Translations under genes and position numbers: made by a program
Part shown: positions 1 to 6,799 of the stretch, piece by piece
Layout of the letters: every line of letters begins with the position of its first letter
Numbering within the stretch: position 1 is the first letter of the stretch
Source: a virus
Taxonomy: Duplodnaviria > Heunggongvirae > Uroviricota > Caudoviricetes
Virus record (IMG/VR): IMGVR_UViG_2547132252_000010
Location: 1-6,799 of that record
Reading direction: 5' to 3' (one strand)
Length of the DNA: 6,799 nucleotides
The notes under the pieces: model-generated
Told to the model about the DNA's origin: nothing
The model's database searches: none
What the model saw: the letters and a program-made list of their open reading frames with translations, nothing else

Positions 1-34
1 CCCGGGTTTCCTGGAGAGTGTTTTATCTGTGAAC

Positions 35-924
35 TCAGGCTGCCAGATCATCGTTTCCGATGGAAGCATAATAAGCTTTTTCTGCTTCTGCCGGAGGAGT
101 ATGGCCCAGCCTTCCCAGCAATCGTCGATTGTTATACCAGTCCACCCACGTTAGTGTGGCCAGTTCCACTTCTGCACGGTTTTTCCAGCTCTTACGGTGT
201 ATTACCTCCGCTTTGTAAAGACCATTGATGCTCTCAGCCATCGCGTTGTCATACGAGTCGCCTGTACTCCCTGTTGATGCCAGTAATCCGGCTTCTTTTA
301 GTCGCTCCGTATAGGCCAGTGACACATACTGAGAGCCTTTATCGCTGTGATGGATGGTGCCAGACGGACGACGGGCCCACAACGCCTGCTCCAGCGCATC
401 CAGCACGAATGTCGTTTCCATAGACGATGAGACCCGCCACCCCACGATGTATCCGGCAAACACATCAATGATAAACGCCACATAGACGAAGCCCTGCCAT
501 GTGCTGACGTAAGTAAAATCAGCCACCCACAGCTGGTCAGGTCGTTCTGCCACGAACTGACGGTTTACGCGGTCGCCTGCGGCAACGGCTTTCCGGCTGA
601 TGGTCGTACGGACCTTTTTACCCCGGAGAACACCGGCAAGTCCCATAACCGCCATGAGACGTGCCACTGTACATCTGGCCACCTGATTCCTTCCCGTAAC
701 AACTGACGCCAGACTTTACGCACACCGTACACCTGATGATTTTCATCGTATACGCGCTGTATCTCTCTCTTCAGCCAGTCGTCGTGCTGCGCACGGGCAC
801 TGCGTTTATCCGGATGATGTCGCTGTTGCTGACAATGGTAATACGTTGACGGGGCAATATGCAGTTCGCTGCATACCGGTCCGACCCCGTACTGCTCACG
901 CAGCTTATCCAGCAGTGGCATCAT
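35..924 (-). pseudogene. IS3-family transposase OrfB (DDE integrase core), frame-disrupted: N-terminal part 565..924 and C-terminal DDE part 35..682 are in different frames
   Basis: IS3-family OrfB is normally one ORF of about 290-300 aa. Here the N-terminal segment ([16 protein letters not shown]...RQLLREGIR) and the DDE catalytic segment (VARCTVARLMAV...WVADFTY...HHSDKGSQY...ESINGLYKAEV...) sit in different frames and overlap across 565-682. The switch maps to about 682-683, where the minus strand reads atc agg tgg cc; one extra G (atc agg gtg gcc) would give the continuous REGIRVARCTV reading. Confidence 0.65.
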
Positions 925-1247
925 TTTTTCCAGAGGCGGTCGAACTCCGCCTTCGCAAAATAAGCGGAAGCCTGGCGAAGGATATCGTTACTGCGGCGCA
1001 GTTCACGATTTTCACGTTCCAGCTCTTTCAGACGCTGACGTTCAGCGCTGGTGAGCCCACCATCACCGCCCCCGGTATCCCGCTCATGCTGGCGAACCCA
1101 GACACGCAGAGTCTCCGGCGTACAGCCAATCTTTGGGGCAATGGAACAAATTGCCGCCCACTGTGAGTCATATTCATCCTGACTTTCCAGAACCATACGA
1201 ATCGCCCGCTGACGGACTTCGGGGGAAAAACGAGTATTTTTAGTCAT
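921..1247 (-). CDS. IS3-family transposase OrfA (HTH DNA-binding subunit), 108 aa
   Basis: [33 protein letters not shown]...[36 protein letters not shown] with an HTH followed by a leucine-zipper-like segment. Its stop overlaps the start of the orfB frame at a T6 run (plus-strand 924-929, A6 on the coding strand), the usual IS3-family -1 frameshift window. Confidence 0.9.
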
Positions 1248-1339
1248 CCTGTTTACCTCTTTCTCAGGGAGTTTAGTCTCCAGGATTTCCGGGGCGGTTC
1301 ACACCAAGTCTGGCCGCGAATTTCTTAGCATCACCAACC

Positions 1340-1467
1340 CTTAATGATTTAATAAACTCTTTTAATGTCATACCTTCCTCGGTTTAGTGTTTTTTGCGAG
1401 TTTAGTGTTTAATAAACCATTAAGTCAAGTATTTGCTTGTTTAGTGATTACTAAAGATAATTACCAC
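1340..1467 (+). promoter_or_regulatory. Candidate promoter-operator region of the TA operon: five direct repeats of TTTA(G/A)TG(A/T) with about 20-bp spacing, plus a sigma70-like -35/-10 pair placing the transcript start at or next to the ATG (leaderless)
   Basis: Repeat copies start near 1340, 1361, 1383, 1401 and 1440; longer forms are TTAATGATTTAATAAACT (1341-1358) and TTTAGTGTTTAATAAACC (1401-1418). TTGCTT at 1433-1438, a 17-bp spacer and GATAAT at 1456-1461 fit a promoter, and there is no Shine-Dalgarno before the ATG at 1468. Promoter and operator roles are inferred. Confidence 0.4.
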
Positions 1468-1838
1468 ATGCAAAAAAAGAAATTCGCCGTTTACGTCTCA
1501 AGGAGTGGTTTAAAGATAAAACTCTGCCACCCAAAGAGAAGAGCTACCTATCTCAACTAATGAGTGGGAGAGCCTCGTTTGGAGAAAAGGCTGCCAGAAG
1601 AATAGAGCAAACATACGGGATGCCGGAAGGGTATCTGGATGCGGAATACGCAGAACAACCGGGGGGTTCTCCACCACATGCAGGGTTAACGTCTAATCAA
1701 CTGGAATTATTGCAGATTTTTTCAGCCTTCCCTGAGGATGAGCAACGCCAGATAATCAGCGAGTTAAAGCAGAAAAAAGAATCAATGGAAGATCTCATAG
1801 CGAGATGGATTGCGGCGCAAAAATGCCGCCGCGCCTGA
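1468..1838 (+). CDS. paaR2: HTH transcriptional regulator of the TA operon (PaaR-like), reading frame offset at an A7 tract; the longest clean ORF is 1560..1838 (92 aa), but the HTH-encoding codons extend upstream to 1461 with no in-frame start
   Basis: Frame 0 from 1461 encodes LPHAKKEIRRLRLKEWFKDKTLPPKEKSYLSQLMSGRASFGEKAARRIEQTYGMPEGYLD..., a Cro/CI-type HTH, but has no ATG, GTG or TTG before M at 1560. The only upstream ATG (1468, atgcaaaaaaag) is in the +1 frame and stops after 30 codons at 1558-1560. One extra A in the A7 run 1472-1478 would give a continuous protein MQKKEIRRLRLKEWF... of about 123 aa. The symbol is by synteny with the recognised antitoxin and toxin genes. Confidence 0.55.
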
Positions 1839-1858
1839 GTTATAAAACCGGAGGAAAC

Positions 1859-2050
1859 ATGAATAGAGCCCTTTCACCAATGGTTTCTGAATTTGAAACC
1901 ATTGAACAAGAAAACAGTTACAACGAATGGCTGCGTGCGAAAGTAGCAACGAGCCTTGCAGATCCGCGCCCAGCAATTCCCCATGACGAAGTTGAGCGCA
2001 GAATGGCAGAACGCTTTGCTAAGATGCGCAAGGAACGGAGCAAGCAGTAA
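1859..2050 (+). CDS. paaA2: Small antitoxin of a ParE-type three-component TA system (PaaA2-like), 63 aa
   Basis: ATG at 1859 preceded by GGAGGA (1850-1855). The product MNRALSPMVSEFETIEQENSYNEWLRAKVATSLADPRPAIPHDEVERRMAERFAKMRKERSKQ is small, charged and helical, and matches my recollection of PaaA2. Its stop (2048-2050) lies 1 nt before the toxin ATG. Confidence 0.75.
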   Translation: MNRALSPMVSEFETIEQENSYNEWLRAKVATSLADPRPAIPHDEVERRMAERFAKMRKERSKQ

Positions 2051-2051
2051 A

Positions 2052-2330
2052 ATGTTACCCGTGTTATGGCTTGAAAGCGCAGATACCGACCTAGATGATA
2101 TAACTAGTTATATTGCTCGTTTCGACATAGATGCGGCTGAACGCTTATGGCAGCGATTAAGGGGTTGTGTGCTGCCGTTATCCGAACATCCGTATTTATA
2201 CCCACCAAGCGACAGAGTACCTGGCTTGCGTGAGATTGTAGCCCACCCTAACTATATAATTCTATACCGCGTAACAACATCAAGCGTTGAAGTAGTAAAC
2301 GTGATCCACGCAAGACGCCAGTTTCCCTAA
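2052..2330 (+). CDS. parE2: ParE/RelE-superfamily toxin (ParE2-like), 92 aa
   Basis: MLPVLWLESADTDLDDITSYIARFDIDAAERLWQRLRGCVLPLSEHPYLYPPSDRVPGLREIVAHPNYIILYRVTTSSVEVVNVIHARRQFP has the ParE-family pattern (D-x-x-I-x-x-YIA, RE-[IL]-V, YIILYRV). The start at 2052 is tightly coupled to the antitoxin stop; the in-frame ATG at 1956 would overlap paaA2 by 95 nt and is rejected. Confidence 0.85.
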   Translation: MLPVLWLESADTDLDDITSYIARFDIDAAERLWQRLRGCVLPLSEHPYLYPPSDRVPGLREIVAHPNYIILYRVTTSSVEVVNVIHARRQFP

Positions 2331-2350
2331 CTTTCACTACCAATAGAAAC

Positions 2351-2393
2351 ATAACAACCGCAACGACTTTATCAAAAGCGTTGTGTTTGTTAT
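2351..2393 (+). terminator. Candidate intrinsic terminator after the TA operon: 15-bp A/U-rich stem (one mismatch, one G-U) with a 13-nt loop and U-rich 3' arm
   Basis: ataacaaccgcaacg (2351-2365) pairs with cgttgtgtttgttat (2379-2393), starting 21 nt after the parE2 stop. The stem is atypically long and AT-rich, so the call is weak. Confidence 0.3.
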
Positions 2394-2400
2394 GTCCCGC

Positions 2401-2441
2401 GGTTTAGTTTTTACTTGGCTTAAGTTTAATGTTTATTAAAC
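2401..2441. repeat. Paralogous second copy of the operator-like block found upstream of the regulator
   Basis: GGTTTAGTTTTTACTTGGCTTAAGTTTAATGTTTATTAAAC (2401-2441) aligns with GGTTTAGTGTTTTTTGCGAGTTTAGTGTTTAATAAAC (1381-1417), sharing the GGTTTAGT head and the TTTA(A/G)TGTTTA(A/T)TAAAC core. Confidence 0.45.
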
Positions 2442-2680
2442 TAAAAATACCAACCACCCCGCCCCACAGAACGCAGGGAAATACTTCGAGTTACCCGGCA
2501 GTGGTCAGGGGTTAAGTAGCCAGCCCGAGGCGTATGAACATGACGGCAGGGTTCAACTTTAATAACTATGCAGCAGTTTTTTGTTCCGCTACCCCGGCGT
2601 TAAGGGGAAACAGAGGGTTTCTCAGTGGGCGAAGTCAAACATCAGAATGGAAGGCATCCCGGGATCGGCAAAGAAGCAGC

Positions 2681-2711
2681 AATGGCGCTTTATATTGACA
2701 TCAGCGCCATT
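2681..2711 (-). terminator. Possible terminator hairpin downstream of the minus-strand zinc-ribbon gene
   Basis: Perfect 9-bp inverted repeat AATGGCGCT (2681-2689) and AGCGCCATT (2703-2711) with a 13-nt loop, about 50 nt past the stop at 2760-2762. On the minus strand it is followed by GCUGCUUCUUUG, only moderately U-rich, and the loop is large. Confidence 0.2.
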
Positions 2712-2759
2712 GCAGGACAGGTAAGAGTTATCAGAGCGGTAACTAAGCGGTATGCGCCT

Positions 2760-2960
2760 TTACTTCAGAAAGTCTCTGGTGAGTGCACCGAAGATATTGT
2801 CAACGATTTCGTCATCGAACTGCGAGGACTCATCTTCAGTTACAAGGTGACCACAATTTTTGCAGATGGCTCCCGCGAAACTGTCAGAGCCCTGCGGCTT
2901 AAAGGATGTGTCAAAGACTTCGCCACCACATTCTGGGCAAGAAAACTTGATTGTATTCAT
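2760..2960 (-). CDS. Small C4 zinc-ribbon protein with acidic C-terminal tail, 66 aa
   Basis: The minus-strand ATG at 2960 is preceded by AGGA with an 8-nt spacer (gagAGGAaattggttATG). The product MNTIKFSCPECGGEVFDTSFKPQGSDSFAGAICKNCGHLVTEDESSQFDDEIVDNIFGALTRDFLK has C-P-E-C and C-K-N-C pairs about 21 residues apart, then an acidic tail. The overlapping plus-strand ORF 2625..2981 has no ribosome-binding site and is taken as antisense noise. Confidence 0.6.
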   Translation of the reverse strand: MNTIKFSCPECGGEVFDTSFKPQGSDSFAGAICKNCGHLVTEDESSQFDDEIVDNIFGALTRDFLK

Positions 2961-3052
2961 AACCAATTTCCTCTCGAGTAACAGACCCCTCAGAGGATAC
3001 CACCTCGCCTGACGTGGTTAAAAGCAGGCAACGCTAACCACAAGGAGCCGAC

Positions 3053-3271
3053 ATGCAGAAACGAGAACCCGTCATCATCGCGCCAGACTATACCGATGAT
3101 GAACTTTATGAGTGGATGCACCAGAAAATTAATGCAGCGCAGGATCTGAAATGGGCCAATGAAGCCAGGGCTAAGCAGGCTGAAAATCTGTCCGCTCTGG
3201 AGCAGGATATCACCAATCTGGAAAAAGCAGCGGCATTAAGCATTGCCAGAATGATTACATACCCGCGTTAA
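3053..3271 (+). CDS. Hypothetical small protein, 72 aa, predicted helical/coiled-coil
   Basis: ATG at 3053 is preceded by AAGGAG (3042-3047) with a 5-nt spacer. The product is MQKREPVIIAPDYTDDELYEWMHQKINAAQDLKWANEARAKQAENLSALEQDITNLEKAAALSIARMITYPR. It is divergent from the zinc-ribbon gene across a 92-bp intergenic region; no family recognised. Confidence 0.55.
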   Translation: MQKREPVIIAPDYTDDELYEWMHQKINAAQDLKWANEARAKQAENLSALEQDITNLEKAAALSIARMITYPR

Positions 3272-3627
3272 TAGCTAACCAACGAAGCTAAGGTTGGTAA
3301 TTAAGGAGTTCTCCACGGGTGAGGTGGAGTGCGTGCGCCGGACACGGGTGAGCATACGGCACTGACAGTTTACTGAAAGGATATTTCCCTGAAAAGTCAG
3401 ACCATAACGCGAAAGCGCACGGCGAGGTAGCTGGTTCATAGATAGCCTGTCGTTAAATTTTCGTCGACCGTGCGCTTCCGGTTGTGGCAATCCGCGAAAT
3501 GGCGCGGCGGTAAGTATGGAGGGGTTATTCCTTCCCCCGTTGAGGACACCGGGTTGTCAGGTTGACCATACGCTTAAGTGACAACCCCGCTGCAACGCCC
3601 TCTGTTATCAATTTTCTGGTGACGTTT

Positions 3628-3670
3628 GGCGGTATCAGTTTTACTCCGTGACTGCTCTGCCGCCCTTTTT
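3628..3670 (+). terminator. Candidate intrinsic terminator: GC-rich 7-bp basal stem (GGCGGUA/UGCCGCC) plus apical 4-bp stem, followed by CUUUUUAAA
   Basis: GGCGGTA (3628-3634) pairs with TGCCGCC (3658-3664), and CAGT (3636-3639) with ACTG (3651-3654); a T5 run follows at 3666-3670. It lies about 400 nt after the stop of the 72-aa gene and just before the 19-bp inverted repeat. Confidence 0.35.
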
Positions 3671-3674
3671 AAAG

Positions 3675-3822
3675 TGAATTTTGTGATGCGGTGAATGCGG
3701 CTGAGCGCACGCGGAACAGTTAAAACCAAAAACAGTGTTATGGGGGGATTCTCTGTATCCGGCGTTAATTGTTAACTGGTTAACGTCACCTGGAGGCACC
3801 AGGCACCGCATCACAAAATTCA
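3675..3822. repeat. 148-bp segment bounded by perfect 19-bp inverted repeats (TGAATTTTGTGATGCGGTG at 3675-3693; reverse complement at 3804-3822)
   Basis: Direct reading: the arms are exact reverse complements and the match stops at both boundaries. The 110-bp interior holds three GTTAA(C) repeats (3766-3784, including GTTAACTGGTTAAC at 3771-3784) and a tandem GGCACCAGGCACC (3795-3807). The right arm ends 17 nt before the ATG at 3840 and 5 nt before its GAGGA ribosome-binding site. Confidence 0.7.
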
Positions 3823-3839
3823 TTGTTGAGGACGCGATA

Positions 3840-4028
3840 ATGGAAACGTTATTACCAAACGTTAATACGTCTGAAGGTTGTTTTGAAATTGGTGTCACTA
3901 TCAGTAACCCTGTATTTACTGAAGATGCCATTAACAAGAGAAAACACGAACGGGAGCTATTAAATAAAATATGCATTCTTTCAATGCTGGCCCGTTTACG
4001 TCCGATACAAAAAGGATGCTGGCAATGA
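3840..4028 (+). CDS. Hypothetical small protein, 62 aa
   Basis: ATG at 3840 is preceded by GAGGA (3828-3832) with a 7-nt spacer. The product is METLLPNVNTSEGCFEIGVTISNPVFTEDAINKRKHERELLNKICILSMLARLRPIQKGCWQ. Its TGA stop (4026-4028) overlaps the next ATG (4025-4027) as ATGA, implying translational coupling. The longer track ORF from 3735 has no ribosome-binding site and would run through the inverted-repeat arm. Confidence 0.45.
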   Translation: METLLPNVNTSEGCFEIGVTISNPVFTEDAINKRKHERELLNKICILSMLARLRPIQKGCWQ

Positions 4029-4216
4029 ATACAGCATTTGCACTTGTTCTGACAGTTTTTCTTGTTTCCGGAGAGCCAGTTGATATTGCAGTCAGTGTTC
4101 ACAGGACAATGCAGGAGTGTGTGACTGCAGCAACCGAACAGAAAATTCCCGGTAACTGTTACCCGGTCGATAAAGTTATTCACCAGGATAATAACGAAAT
4201 CCCGGCAGGTCTTTAA
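4025..4216 (+). CDS. Hypothetical small membrane-associated protein, 63 aa, hydrophobic N-terminal segment
   Basis: ATG at 4025 is preceded by AAGGA with an 8-nt spacer (aaaAAGGAtgctggcaATG). The product MNTAFALVLTVFLVSGEPVDIAVSVHRTMQECVTAATEQKIPGNCYPVDKVIHQDNNEIPAGL has an uncharged hydrophobic stretch at residues 3-16 (one transmembrane helix or atypical signal) and two Cys. The alternative start at 3971 lacks a properly spaced Shine-Dalgarno. Confidence 0.45.
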   Translation: MNTAFALVLTVFLVSGEPVDIAVSVHRTMQECVTAATEQKIPGNCYPVDKVIHQDNNEIPAGL

Positions 4217-4308
4217 AACAGTTCCGTAATAAACATCCGATTTCATTCTTATATGCCAGCAATGGCAGGGATTTGTTCACCCTTAAATCTGTAATGAGGT
4301 AAAACAAA

Positions 4309-6780
4309 ATGAGTAAAGTCTTTATTTGCGCCGCCATTCCGGACGAACAGGCAATAAAGGAAGAAGGTGCCGTCGCTGTAGCCACTGCCATTGAAGCCGG
4401 TGATGAACGTCGCGCCCGCGCAAAATTTCACTGGCAATTCCTGGAACATTATCCGGCTGCTCAGGACTGCGCTTATAAATTTCTTGTTTGCGAGGATAAA
4501 CCCGGTATACCCCGCCCTGCCCTCGATTCCTGGGATGCTGAATATATGCAGGAAAACCGCTGGGATGAGGCGTCTGCTTCCTTTGTCCCGGTCGAGACTG
4601 AATCCGATCCGATGAACGTCACTTTTGACAACCTGGCCCCTGAAGTACAGAACGCTGTCATGGTTAAGTTCGACACATGTGAAAACATCACTGTTGATAT
4701 GGTGATTAGCGCACAGGAATTGTTGCAGGAAGACATGGCAACATTCGACGGCCATATCGTTGAAGCGTTGATGAAAATGCCAGAAGTTAACGCCATGTAT
4801 CCGGAGCTTAAGCTGCATGCCATCGGGTGGGTTAAGCATAAATGTAAGCCTGGTGCCAAATGGCCCGAAATTCAGGCAGAGATGCGCATCTGGAAAAAAC
4901 GTCGCGAAGGTGAACGCAAGGAAGCCGGAAAATACACGTCTGTTGTTGATCTCGCCCGCGCCAGAGCCAATCAACAGCACACTGAAAATTCAACAGGAAA
5001 AATCAACCCGGTCATTGCTGCCATTCATCGCGAATACAAGCAGACATGGAAAACACTGGATGACGAACTGGCCTACGCTCTCTGGCCTGGTGATGTGGAT
5101 GCCGGAAACATTGACGGCAGCATCCATCGCTGGGCAAAAAATGAAGTTATCGACAACGGCCGCGAAGACTGGAAGCGTATCTCGGCATCAATGCGCAAAC
5201 AGCCTGATGCCCTTCGCTACGACCGCCAGACTATTTTTGGCCTTGTCCGTGAACGTCCGATCGACATTCACAAAGACCCTGTGGCACTGAACAAATACAT
5301 TACTGAATACCTGACTACAAAGGGCGTGTTTGAAGATGAAGGAACAAATCAGAGCGCAACTGACACTCTCTCGTCGCCAGTACCAGAAACTGATGCAGTG
5401 GAAACGGCAATTCCGGACAACGAAAAAACCGAATGCAAAGTGGAAGTCGAACCATCTGTAGAGCGTGAGGGGCCGTTCTACTTCCTCTTCACCGACAAGG
5501 ATGGCGAAAAATACGGTCGCGCAAACAAACTTTCTGGTCTGGATAAGGCGCTGGCTGCCGGGGCTACTGAAATCACAAAAGAAGAATATTTTGCCCGAAA
5601 AAATGGCACATACACAGGCTTACCGCAAAATGCAAATACCGCACAAAATTCTGAACAACCAGAACCGGTAAAAGTTACCGCTGACGAAGTAAAGAAAATT
5701 ATGCAGGCAGCCAATATCAGCCAGCCTGACGCCAATCAGTTGCTCGCCGCATCACGTGGTGAATTTGTTGCAGGGATTAGCGACCCGAATGATCCGAAAT
5801 GGGTGAAGGGGATTGAAACCCGCGATTCTGTGAACCAGAACCAGCAAGAAACGGAACAGAACGACCAGAAAGCGGAACAAAACAGCCCAAATACGCAACA
5901 AAACGAGCCAGAAACGAAACAACCTGAGCCAGTAGCGCAACAGGAACCGGAAAAAGTCTGCACCGCCTGCGGTCAGACCGGCGGCGGCAACTGCCCTGAT
6001 TGTGGCGCGGTGATGGGCGACGCAACATACCAGGAAACATTCGATGAAGAGTATCAGGTTGAAGTTCAGGAAGATGATCCGGAGGAAATGGAAGGCGCTG
6101 AACATCCACACAAGGAGAACACTGACGGCAATCAGCATCACGATAGCGATAATGAAACTGGCGAGACGGCAGATCACTCAATTAAGGTGAACGGTCATCA
6201 AGAAATCACATCCACCAGCAGGACGTGTGACCATCTAATGATCGACCTTGAAACCATGGGAAAAAATCCTGATGCCCCGATCATCTCAATAGGTGCAATA
6301 TTTTTCGATCCGCAAACCGGAGATATGGGACCGGAATTTAGTAAGACTATCGATCTGGAAACTGCTGGCGGGGTCATTGATCGGGACACCATTAAATGGT
6401 GGCTTAAGCAATCACGCGAAGCGCAATCTGCCATTATGACCGATGAAATCCCGTTAGATGATGCACTATTACAATTGCGGGAATTTATCGACGAAAACTC
6501 CGGTGAATTTTTTGTTCAGGTCTGGGGAAATGGAGCCAACTTCGACAACACGATTTTGCGCCGTTCATACGAACGGCAGGGGATCCCCTGCCCGTGGCGT
6601 TACTACAACGATCGCGATGTACGCACAATCGTTGAGCTGGGGAAAGCCATAGACTTCGATGCCAGAACGGCTATTCCATTCGAAGGTGAGCGCCATAATG
6701 CACTTGATGACGCCCGTTACCAGGCAAAATACGTTTCAGTTATCTGGCAAAAACTGATCCCGAATCAGGCTGATTTTTAA
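4309..6780 (+). CDS. Prophage recombination-type exonuclease, 823 aa: long N-terminal and linker region (RecE-like by recollection) with an internal C4 zinc ribbon, fused to a C-terminal DEDDh (DnaQ/ExoX-like) 3'-5' exonuclease domain
   Basis: ATG at 4309 is preceded by GAGGT with an 8-nt spacer. The C-terminal domain (from about M644, nt 6238) carries the three DEDDh motifs: Exo I MIDLETMG (D-x-E), Exo II WGNGANFD, Exo III HNALDDARYQAKY (H-x4-D). Upstream are a C-x2-C-x21-C-x2-C zinc ribbon (codons 551-565, nt 5959-6003) and an acidic Q/N/E/P-rich low-complexity linker. The middle region (LLAASRGEFVAGISDPNDPKWVKGI...CTACGQTGGGNCPDCGAVMGDATYQETFDEE) matches my memory of central RecE; this is unverified. 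Confidence 0.9.
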   Translation: MSKVFICAAIPDEQAIKEEGAVAVATAIEAGDERRARAKFHWQFLEHYPAAQDCAYKFLVCEDKPGIPRPALDSWDAEYMQENRWDEASASFVPVETESDPMNVTFDNLAPEVQNAVMVKFDTCENITVDMVISAQELLQEDMATFDGHIVEALMKMPEVNAMYPELKLHAIGWVKHKCKPGAKWPEIQAEMRIWKKRREGERKEAGKYTSVVDLARARANQQHTENSTGKINPVIAAIHREYKQTWKTLDDELAYALWPGDVDAGNIDGSIHRWAKNEVIDNGREDWKRISASMRKQPDALRYDRQTIFGLVRERPIDIHKDPVALNKYITEYLTTKGVFEDEGTNQSATDTLSSPVPETDAVETAIPDNEKTECKVEVEPSVEREGPFYFLFTDKDGEKYGRANKLSGLDKALAAGATEITKEEYFARKNGTYTGLPQNANTAQNSEQPEPVKVTADEVKKIMQAANISQPDANQLLAASRGEFVAGISDPNDPKWVKGIETRDSVNQNQQETEQNDQKAEQNSPNTQQNEPETKQPEPVAQQEPEKVCTACGQTGGGNCPDCGAVMGDATYQETFDEEYQVEVQEDDPEEMEGAEHPHKENTDGNQHHDSDNETGETADHSIKVNGHQEITSTSRTCDHLMIDLETMGKNPDAPIISIGAIFFDPQTGDMGPEFSKTIDLETAGGVIDRDTIKWWLKQSREAQSAIMTDEIPLDDALLQLREFIDENSGEFFVQVWGNGANFDNTILRRSYERQGIPCPWRYYNDRDVRTIVELGKAIDFDARTAIPFEGERHNALDDARYQAKYVSVIWQKLIPNQADF

Positions 6781-6799
6781 TGTTCAACCCCGGTCGTTG
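6780..6799 (+). CDS. 5' end of the next gene (MFNPGR...), start overlapping the exonuclease stop in TAATG; truncated by the window end
   Basis: ATG at 6780-6782 overlaps TAA at 6778-6780, a typical coupled arrangement. Only 6 codons are visible, so this is based on position alone. Confidence 0.25.

Follow-up and report, generated by a model that had tools for sequence, protein, structure and literature searches.

A zinc-ribbon gene nested antisense in a conserved reading frame beside ydfC in a CP-933P/Sp12-type prophage: two unrelated units probably joined by mosaic recombination

Results

Two small genes in the early-left arm of a lambdoid prophage

We analyzed a 6,799-nucleotide stretch of viral DNA (IMG/VR record IMGVR_UViG_2547132252_000010, positions 1 to 6,799; referred to below as the window), in which two small divergent genes at positions 2760-3271 had been singled out by a reading of the sequence alone. 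That sequence-only reading had described a four-cysteine (C4) zinc-ribbon protein and a 72-residue helical protein, and both open reading frames (ORFs) are present, one of 66 codons at 2760-2960 on the minus strand and one of 72 codons at 3053-3271 on the plus strand. We propose, with a probability of roughly 0.65 and on the basis of sequence comparisons, that this interval is made up of two unrelated units that were joined by mosaic recombination: ydfC, which would be read from the early-left promoter PL, and an apparently dual-coding module that contains the longer ORF orfX and, nested within it on the opposite strand, a zinc-ribbon gene.

The 901 bases around the pair are 100% identical to many Escherichia coli O157:H7 chromosomes, and RefSeq names the products at the matching loci “protein YdfC” and “ECs_2282 family putative zinc-binding protein”. 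The pair thus consists of already named genes, and their divergent layout is incidental. The sequence-only reading had recognized neither protein; the 72-residue one is YdfC (71 of 72 residues identical to K-12 b1573), and the 66-residue one belongs to NCBIfam family NF047912. It had also missed orfX, which overlaps the whole zinc-ribbon gene, as well as DicF, dicB and ydfD on the 3' side of ydfC. The window corresponds to the early-left arm of a lambdoid prophage of the CP-933P/Sp12 type from E. coli O157:H7, with the order PaaR2-PaaA2-ParE2, left operators and early-left promoter (OL/PL), orfX with the zinc-ribbon gene inside, ydfC, DicF, dicB, ydfD and exonuclease (Table 1).

A conserved C4 zinc-ribbon gene

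The zinc-ribbon gene starts at ATG 2960 (the alternative start TTG 2966 would give 68 residues). Good ribosome-binding sites had been claimed for both genes, and these were found: the Shine-Dalgarno sequence is GAGAGGAAATTGGTT-ATG for the zinc-ribbon gene and AAGGAG, 5 nt ahead of the ATG, for ydfC. The zinc-ribbon protein scores 57.2 bits against NF047912 (cutoff 37, profile positions 1-56 of 60), contains the motifs CPEC and CKNC, and has an acidic C-terminal part. Its cysteines C8, C11, C33 and C36 (CxxC...CxxC), which are predicted to bind zinc, are invariant across close and remote relatives. The family proper comprises 12 clusters from four enterobacterial genera that share 60-98% identity and all four cysteines. 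An exhaustive profile search added 66 remote relatives, most of them 63-75 residues long and matched over most of their length; all four cysteines are invariant in the 29 that were aligned, and the motif common to the relatives is approximately CPxCG...GAxCxxCGHxxTEDD, followed by a helix. Conservation of both ORFs across relatives, which the sequence-only reading had named as a test, was thus observed, with these 12 clusters for the zinc-ribbon protein and 113 for YdfC.

Scans of the zinc-ribbon protein, the orfX product and YdfC against Pfam, NCBIfam, PHROGs and PADLOC gave family names only and no function. The zinc-ribbon protein had no Pfam model over threshold and no PADLOC relative, and its match to phrog_6422 was sub-threshold (E = 0.0098). 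A Foldseek search of its model against the PDB returned only generic zinc ribbons of RNA polymerase and ribosomal proteins, with E > 0.3, and a PDB sequence profile search with the 29 relatives gave no meaningful match. The sequence-only reading had likened this protein to small enzyme-inhibitor or anti-defence proteins, a resemblance for which none of the PADLOC, Pfam, PDB and fold searches gave a significant match. Membership of the Lar restriction alleviation family (PF14354) was considered and rejected, as the window protein has no match and only one of the 29 relatives matches it, at E = 2.8e-4; likewise, Ogr/Delta (PF04606) is matched by one of the 29, below threshold. Literature searches for ECs2282, ECs_2282 and WP_001092153 returned nothing on this gene. 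A scan of species-representative genomes yielded one weak partial match only, and a broad alignment (A4) was too diverse for a locus scan.

The zinc-ribbon gene lies within a longer ORF of the early operon

The reading frame of orfX encloses the whole zinc-ribbon gene, which is on the other strand. With the in-frame GTG 2625 as its start (ORF 2625-2981), for which there is a good Shine-Dalgarno sequence, the orfX product would have 118 residues; this start was rejected because the 19-codon extension lacks wobble bias and contains indels between strains, and ATG 2682 is taken as the conserved start on this comparative evidence. The position of orfX at the head of the operon suggested an N-type antiterminator, an assignment that we rejected on inspection, as the product has no arginine-rich N-terminus; Pfam and PHROGs scans did not reveal a recognizable domain either. 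A tblastn search of phage records with orfX yielded nothing beyond near-identical E. coli phages.

Neighboring genes are listed for nine diverged lineages; in every one of them, the zinc-ribbon gene runs against the adjacent early operon and lies beside the immunity region, where it follows either cI, at the start of the PL operon, or cro, within the PR operon. These contexts cover Citrobacter, Klebsiella, Enterobacter and metagenomic E. coli prophages, and each time a longer ORF on the operon strand spans the zinc-ribbon gene. In two further lineages (L014 and L016) the contigs end at the module and the context is unreadable. The remote relatives L024 and L025 were uninformative with respect to nesting, being on short contigs, with antisense frames commonly open. 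In an Enterobacter hormaechei prophage (locus L012, 4323-4823), the zinc-ribbon gene has the exclusion gene SieB as its neighbor, and both are encoded on the strand opposite to that of the PL operon, which fits a position of the zinc-ribbon gene among accessory genes expressed in the lysogen.

Codon-position patterns change strand at the zinc-ribbon stop codon

The codons of the two frames are aligned, with position 3 of the zinc-ribbon codons corresponding to position 1 of the orfX codons. Since shadow ORFs commonly arise in a codon-aligned antisense frame, we tested on which strand selection acts by counting parsimony changes on a neighbor-joining tree of 11 distinct lineages, in which zinc-ribbon identity goes down to 45%. 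Both ORFs are open in all 11. Over the 65 overlapped codons, changes at zinc-ribbon positions 1, 2 and 3 numbered 73, 35 and 117 (position 3 above position 1, p = 0.0017), while over the 24 codons just past the zinc-ribbon stop, those at orfX positions 3, 2 and 1 numbered 75, 41 and 40 (p = 0.0014). The codon-position pattern therefore switches from one strand to the other precisely at the stop codon of the zinc-ribbon gene (Fisher p = 6.5e-6), and because of this flip both strands appear to code: the comparisons argue for a real zinc-ribbon gene and for protein coding by at least the N-terminal part of orfX. As in an antisense overlapping pair, purifying selection is seen in both frames, that of the zinc-ribbon gene in the overlap and that of orfX in the adjacent 24 codons.

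Among the four sequences of the E. coli group, which are unsaturated, changes in the overlap at zinc-ribbon positions 1, 2 and 3 were 24, 11 and 73. The zinc-ribbon frame had an omega of 0.15 in the overlap, compared with 0.97 for the orfX frame. Where orfX is not overlapped, its frame had an omega of 0.3-0.4 and the opposite one an omega of 0.8-1.5; one glycine codon there takes all four third bases, and similarity of the orfX N-terminus at the protein level persists in the relative with 45% identity. Within the overlap, 11 serine (TCN) and 14 leucine codon states are never TCA, TTA or CTA, which would be stop codons in orfX; the sole TCA is zinc-ribbon codon 2, where it makes the orfX stop.

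One might argue that only the zinc-ribbon gene is real, orfX being a shadow ORF and the conserved stretch past the zinc-ribbon stop being a 3' untranslated region (UTR) with its terminator. RefSeq annotates the zinc-ribbon gene only, a conserved hairpin and a T-run do lie in that stretch (see below), and omega is about 1 in the orfX frame across the overlap. Moreover, with codon-aligned frames an orfX stop requires the rare codons TTA, CTA or TCA, an antisense frame has a 3-30% chance per sequence of being open, and a remote relative in an ordinary co-directional context also has such an open frame. We nevertheless regard this explanation as unlikely: past the zinc-ribbon stop the changes follow the orfX wobble position, including the glycine codon with its four third bases, the similarity of the orfX N-terminus is kept at 45% identity, and the orientation relative to the operon is constant in the nine contexts.

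Population data also bear on this question, and on its converse. Viral and metagenome contigs provided 114 E. coli copies of the module. Of these, 113 have an open orfX, compared with 89 in which the zinc-ribbon ORF is intact, which again speaks against a shadow orfX. A nonsense codon interrupts the zinc-ribbon frame in 24 copies, mostly E14* (GAA to TAA) and once E44* (loci L080-L104, L122 and L128), E14* changing only an F to L in orfX; in the remaining copy, a frameshift breaks both ORFs. The confinement of nonsense alleles to the zinc-ribbon frame would suit a reading in which orfX alone is real, as the first cistron of the early-left operon, and the zinc-ribbon ORF is an annotation artefact. 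In keeping with that, gene callers for phages and metagenomes pick the ORF on the operon strand, and phrog_21318 covers orfX from end to end. Such an artefact is very unlikely, though, since the wobble pattern in the overlap follows the zinc-ribbon frame both in the E. coli group and on the tree, the 66 remote relatives have near the same length with four invariant cysteines in those aligned, the protein passes NF047912, and its Shine-Dalgarno sequence, ATG and promoter-like block are conserved outside orfX.

Predicted promoter and terminator of the zinc-ribbon cassette

The spacer between the flagged genes (2961-3052) is 92 bp long, as had been reported, and probably holds the zinc-ribbon promoter, judging from a promoter-like block with an extended -10 on the minus strand. 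The layout of this block across lineages is TT(A/C)A(C/T)C, 16 nt and TGgTATC(C/T)T, with a spacer of variable sequence. It recurs in five of the six lineages examined, namely E. coli, Citrobacter freundii, Klebsiella michiganensis, Enterobacter hormaechei and the 45%-identity relative L022; the group on the cro side keeps TATCCT only. The hexamer TATCCT is present in all six sequences of the upstream alignment, and L022 has TATCTT. Both the block and the Shine-Dalgarno sequence are conserved and lie inside the 92-bp spacer.

A conserved hairpin (2679-2713), the probable terminator, lies some 50 nt beyond the zinc-ribbon stop; RNAalifold predicted 8 pairs for it, 3 with compensatory changes. 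It is followed on the minus strand by a T-rich tail (2667-2678), which is T8 in the E. coli variant L016. On the plus strand, the same hairpin encloses or abuts the start codon of orfX. If these sequence predictions hold, the conserved promoter-like block and the conserved hairpin with its T-rich tail would be the promoter and terminator expected of a moron.

A mosaic joint within the 92-bp spacer

Similarity of the window to K-12 and several phages starts exactly at the ydfC ATG; in those sequences, ydfC comes after ydfA and ydfB, all on one strand. The window sequence is shared by other E. coli copies of the module only to about position 3030, and some of them then run into sequence corresponding to window position 3404 onward, without ydfC. 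These comparisons place a mosaic recombination joint within the spacer. An 8-bp direct repeat, AAGCAGGC, is present at the module border (3023-3030) and inside ydfC (3175-3182), and in one viral contig (locus L030) the 5' half of ydfC has been lost by a deletion that runs exactly from one repeat to the other.

The zinc-ribbon/ydfC arrangement is common and is not an obligate unit. The whole arrangement is present in 923 of 5426 complete E. coli genomes, and ydfC adjoins the module in 61 of 80 copies on viral contigs; ydfC is found without the zinc-ribbon gene in K-12 and several phages, and the zinc-ribbon module without ydfC in other prophages.

The sequence-only reading had described a dyad AACCAC...GTGGTT at 3017-3038. 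There is a dyad in the spacer, with other arms and other limits (Table 1). It is probably fortuitous, because its right arm lies outside the conserved module, in 23 nt specific to the ydfC junction past the module border near 3030, and a 7-bp dyad turns up in about 5% of shuffles of the spacer. Its left arm overlaps the putative -35, and the dyad as a whole straddles the joint.

These results bear directly on the view that the two genes form a divergent regulatory or immunity pair run from the shared 92-bp region via its dyads, a view we consider highly improbable. The genes are divergent, the spacer probably holds one promoter and a 7-bp dyad, and the arrangement recurs in the 923 genomes mentioned above. 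Against this, the pair is not inherited together, the joint lies inside the spacer and is spanned by the dyad, and the operators (2402-2437) and PL are located about 600 bp upstream. Pfam and NCBIfam scans detected no helix-turn-helix or other DNA-binding domain in either protein, and a scan of the plus strand of the spacer gave no sigma-70-like site for ydfC. As a control region, the spacer probably serves the zinc-ribbon gene, and we found none of the hallmarks of a divergent switch module: a DNA-binding product, two divergent promoters with shared operators, or joint inheritance.

ydfC is most likely transcribed from PL

The ydfC gene is a long-known, already named gene of the dicBF operon. 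Here, it shows full-length similarity to its K-12 counterpart and lies 5' of dicF-dicB-ydfD on the same strand; from ydfC onward, the gene order is that of the K-12 Qin dicBF operon (ydfA-ydfB-ydfC-dicF-dicB-ydfD). YdfC matches phrog_1744 with E = 1e-39 over 1-68/68, and almost all of the named clusters among its 113 are from Escherichia. The N-terminus MQKREPVIIAPDYTDDELYEWM is highly conserved and is followed by a variable long helix; the AlphaFold model, a single long helix of residues 15-69 with a predicted local distance difference test score (pLDDT) of 88, bears out the earlier description of a helical protein. In the literature searched, we found no paper that gives YdfC a function.

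The OL operators of the window share the pattern GTTTAGTnnTT, matching the copies at the right operators (OR). In strain TR01, the 14-nt repeat GTTTAGTGnTT... occurs three times between paaR2 and ydaS (OR) and twice more just 3' of parE2. The published operator consensus of PaaR2/YdaS is GTTTAGTAA, and OL1-3 adjoin the early-left promoter PL933P (PMC8630535). PL933P has been cloned; it is active and is repressed about 100-fold by PaaR2 and YdaS, and the authors could assign no function to the ORFs 3' of it (PMC8630535). A 12-nt block, TACTTGACTTAA, which contains the -35 sequence, is common to PR and PL933P; the -35 is TTGGCT in the window versus TTGACT in TR01, and the -10 position given in Table 1 is our own reading.

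In K-12, the ydfABC-dicF-dicB transcript starts at dicBp, 5' of ydfA, and no other promoter was found (10.1101/2023.04.14.536235); DicF has been described as a derivative of the ydfC 3' UTR (PMC9438474). By direct comparison with K-12, the window retains a segment of the ydfA 5' leader at 2582-2612, which identifies this segment as the left mosaic joint, the point at which ydfA-ydfB were replaced. Because OL/PL lies upstream, K-12 has a single promoter 5' of ydfA, the ydfA leader is kept, and the spacer is devoid of a sigma-70-like site, ydfC is most likely transcribed from the repressor-controlled PL933P some 600 bp upstream and apparently not from the 92-bp spacer.

The PL leader also contains a small hairpin at 2592-2607, CCCC-GGCGTTAA-GGGG, which is conserved with the K-12 ydfA leader (CCCCAGCGTTAAGGGG). 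This might be a processing or antitermination-type site, or only the context of the ydfA ribosome site.

Table 1. Positions of the features discussed in the text, numbered from the first nucleotide of the window
Feature	Coordinates	Strand	Details
OL operators of the PaaR2/YdaS repressors	2402-2415 (GTTTAGTTTTTACT), 2424-2437 (GTTTAATGTTTATT)		14-nt repeat family common with OR
Early-left promoter PL933P	2415-2442	+	-35 TTGGCT 2415-2420; -10 near 2437-2442
Leader segment homologous to K-12 ydfA 5' leader (gttccgctaccccGgcgttaaggggaaa)	2582-2612	+	direct comparison of the window with K-12
Conserved hairpin, probable zinc-ribbon terminator	arms 2679-2689, 2703-2713	-	RNAalifold 8 pairs, 3 with compensatory changes
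orfX	2682-2981	+	99-codon ORF on the early-operon strand; phrog_21318, E = 2e-67 over 1-99/99
ECs_2282-family C4 zinc-ribbon gene	2760-2960	-	66 aa; NF047912
Putative zinc-ribbon promoter	2994-3021	-	-35 TTAACC (complement 3016-3021), 16-nt spacer, extended -10 TGgTATCCT (complement 2994-3002)
Dyad	3014-3041		GTGGTTA (3014-3020) / TAACCAC (3035-3041); 7-bp arms, 14-nt spacer
ydfC	3053-3271	+	72 aa; cistron of the dicBF early-left operon; 71/72 identical to K-12 b1573
DicF small RNA	3614-3665	+	Rfam RF00039, 76.7 bits vs gathering score 48, full length 1-52
dicB, cell-division inhibitor	3840-4028	+	NF049927, 131 bits; RefSeq annotation
ydfD (DUF1482)	4025-4216	+	PF07358, E = 7.8e-25; RefSeq annotation

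Other features of the window

The genes paaA2 (antitoxin) and parE2 (toxin) lie upstream of OL/PL, together with what remains of the gene for the PaaR2 repressor. A long hairpin at 2348-2394 (arms of 22 nt, loop of 3 nt), which follows the parE2 stop immediately and comes shortly before OL, is probably the terminator of the paaR2-paaA2-parE2 operon. An insertion sequence (IS) of the IS3 family (IS629/IS1203-like, with a two-ORF transposase and an ALIL frameshift pseudoknot at 850-966) occupies positions 35-1371 inside ydaS, the cro analogue, of which only about the first 25 codons remain, in a minus-strand ORF at 1273-1371. In paaR2, the cI analogue (1467-1838), an A-run has 7 A versus 8 in strain TR01, which results in a frameshift, and the window differs from TR01 by a single nucleotide in two further homopolymers. 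Both repressors and PL may be decaying in the strain from which the window derives, or these may be homopolymer sequencing errors.

On the 3' side of ydfC, RefSeq annotates a hypothetical protein of 54 residues (WP_001331716.1) at 3275-3439 on the minus strand, inside the ydfC 3' UTR/DicF precursor region, which is probably a spurious call. The dicF-dicB spacer contains a sub-threshold Rfam match to STnc100 at 3663-3872 (39.7 bits vs gathering score 47). Downstream of ydfD, an exonuclease of 823 residues is encoded at 4309-6780; it has a RecE/exonuclease VIII-like middle part and a C-terminal Rv2179c-like 3'-5' exoribonuclease domain, and contains an internal CxxC...CxxC motif (CTACGQTGGGNCPDCG). 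In strain TR01, this gene is split by an IS1203 element.

Discussion

The results can be accommodated by the following scenario. In the dicBF-type operon of this prophage, the place of ydfA-ydfB is taken by a compact module of about 350 bp (approximately 2679-3030) that carries orfX and the antisense zinc-ribbon gene. As long as the prophage is repressed, PL would be off and the zinc-ribbon cassette would be transcribed alone, as a moron, so that its protein would be made in the lysogenic state. Once PL fires, RNA polymerase would read through orfX to ydfC-dicF-dicB, and translation of orfX may keep the mRNA covered by ribosomes across the backwards cassette, thereby avoiding Rho-dependent polarity. 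Conversely, the convergent promoter and the fully complementary zinc-ribbon mRNA could oppose leaky read-through from PL into the toxic dicF and dicB.

One can carry this further and imagine the module as a dual-coding, strand-switched toggle that would produce the zinc-ribbon protein when repressed and the 99-residue orfX protein when PL or PR fires, the two states being mutually exclusive through convergent transcription and RNA pairing, and leaky expression of downstream toxic genes (here dicF and dicB) being buffered. We put this forward only tentatively and find it rather doubtful as a whole; if true, a portable lysogeny/lytic toggle written on both strands would be spreading among enterobacterial prophages in a constant polarity.

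Several points weigh against the interpretation that we prefer, that of two joined units with a dual-coding module. Rho shielding and antisense or convergent interference are roles that we only infer. The zinc-ribbon promoter block is weak, with 8 of 12 matches to consensus plus the TG, and falls under the scan threshold. The U-tract after the hairpin is weak in the window as well, and the complement of the T-run is the A-rich Shine-Dalgarno/ATG region of orfX, so conservation there is ambiguous. Except that it is never interrupted, the orfX frame lacks any separate sign of constraint in the overlap (omega about 1 within E. coli), and the C-terminal two-thirds of orfX may be passive read-through and not a functional domain. 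The avoidance of stop codons is only moderately improbable by chance, at 0.03-0.3 per sequence and, as a rough estimate, about 0.005-0.05 jointly. Because nonsense alleles occur in 24 of the 114 copies, the zinc-ribbon gene is dispensable in some prophages, in which orfX stays open. Finally, AlphaFold gave a poor model for the zinc-ribbon protein (pLDDT 55), and the Pfam, PDB, PADLOC and fold searches were uninformative.

The module deserves attention as a small conserved gene placed backwards inside a conserved ORF at the head of an early operon, with evidence of coding on both strands. It sits in a genetically tractable E. coli prophage and might affect the basal expression of DicF and DicB, both well studied, which lie directly on its 3' side. 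Its annotation is at present inconsistent, as RefSeq takes one strand and the phage and metagenome pipelines take the other.

With the K-12 Qin dicBF operon, the window shares ydfC (99% identical), DicF, dicB and ydfD in the same order and on the same strand, the ydfA-type leader, and the location of the operon directly 3' of a cI-like repressor gene and OL/PL. It differs in having the orfX/zinc-ribbon module in place of ydfA and ydfB, and the PaaR2 repressor with the PaaA2-ParE2 toxin-antitoxin pair where K-12 has DicA. The immunity region of CP-933P/Sp12 (PaaR2, YdaS and YdaT, with promoters PRM, PR, PRE and PL933P; PMC8630535) is the same type of locus, and its OL/PL matches, whereas the window has an IS-cut ydaS, a frameshifted paaR2 and a changed base in the PL -35. 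The nested antisense orfX/zinc-ribbon pair goes unmentioned in the searched text of that paper (PMC8630535). As for the zinc-ribbon protein, it resembles Lar (PF14354) and Ogr/Delta (PF04606) in its length of about 65 residues, its CxxC...CxxC pattern and its location in a prophage early region; the matches to both are sub-threshold, and it cannot be assigned to either family.

The nested orfX/zinc-ribbon module is not described in the literature that we searched, and by its organization it appears akin to prophage morons and to antisense overlapping genes. Morons of lambdoid prophages are autonomous promoter-gene-terminator cassettes, such as lambda rexAB, sieB, bor and lom. Like these, the zinc-ribbon gene is small, comes with a predicted promoter and terminator of its own, is situated next to the immunity region in the company of exclusion and toxin-antitoxin genes, and could be expressed while the early operon is repressed. 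Unlike these, it is antisense to the early operon and wholly inside another ORF, and it is known here from sequence.

Antisense transcripts are also found beside lambdoid immunity regions, lambda oop RNA opposite cII and P22 sar RNA being examples. The zinc-ribbon cassette is similar in that its short convergent transcript, predicted here, would be complementary to the early-operon message next to cI or cro, and on the PR side the zinc-ribbon gene fills the slot just after cro. The difference is that the zinc-ribbon transcript would encode a conserved protein of 66 residues; a regulatory effect is hypothetical.

To our knowledge, bacteria and phages have few antisense overlapping protein genes that are well supported, and these are disputed. 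Those reported in E. coli O157:H7 include nog1, asa, pop, ano and laoB, and as in those cases, the module would have two protein-coding frames on opposite strands of the same enterohemorrhagic E. coli DNA. There, however, the evidence consists of expression data for a novel gene inside a well-known one, whereas here comparative sequence evidence speaks for both frames.

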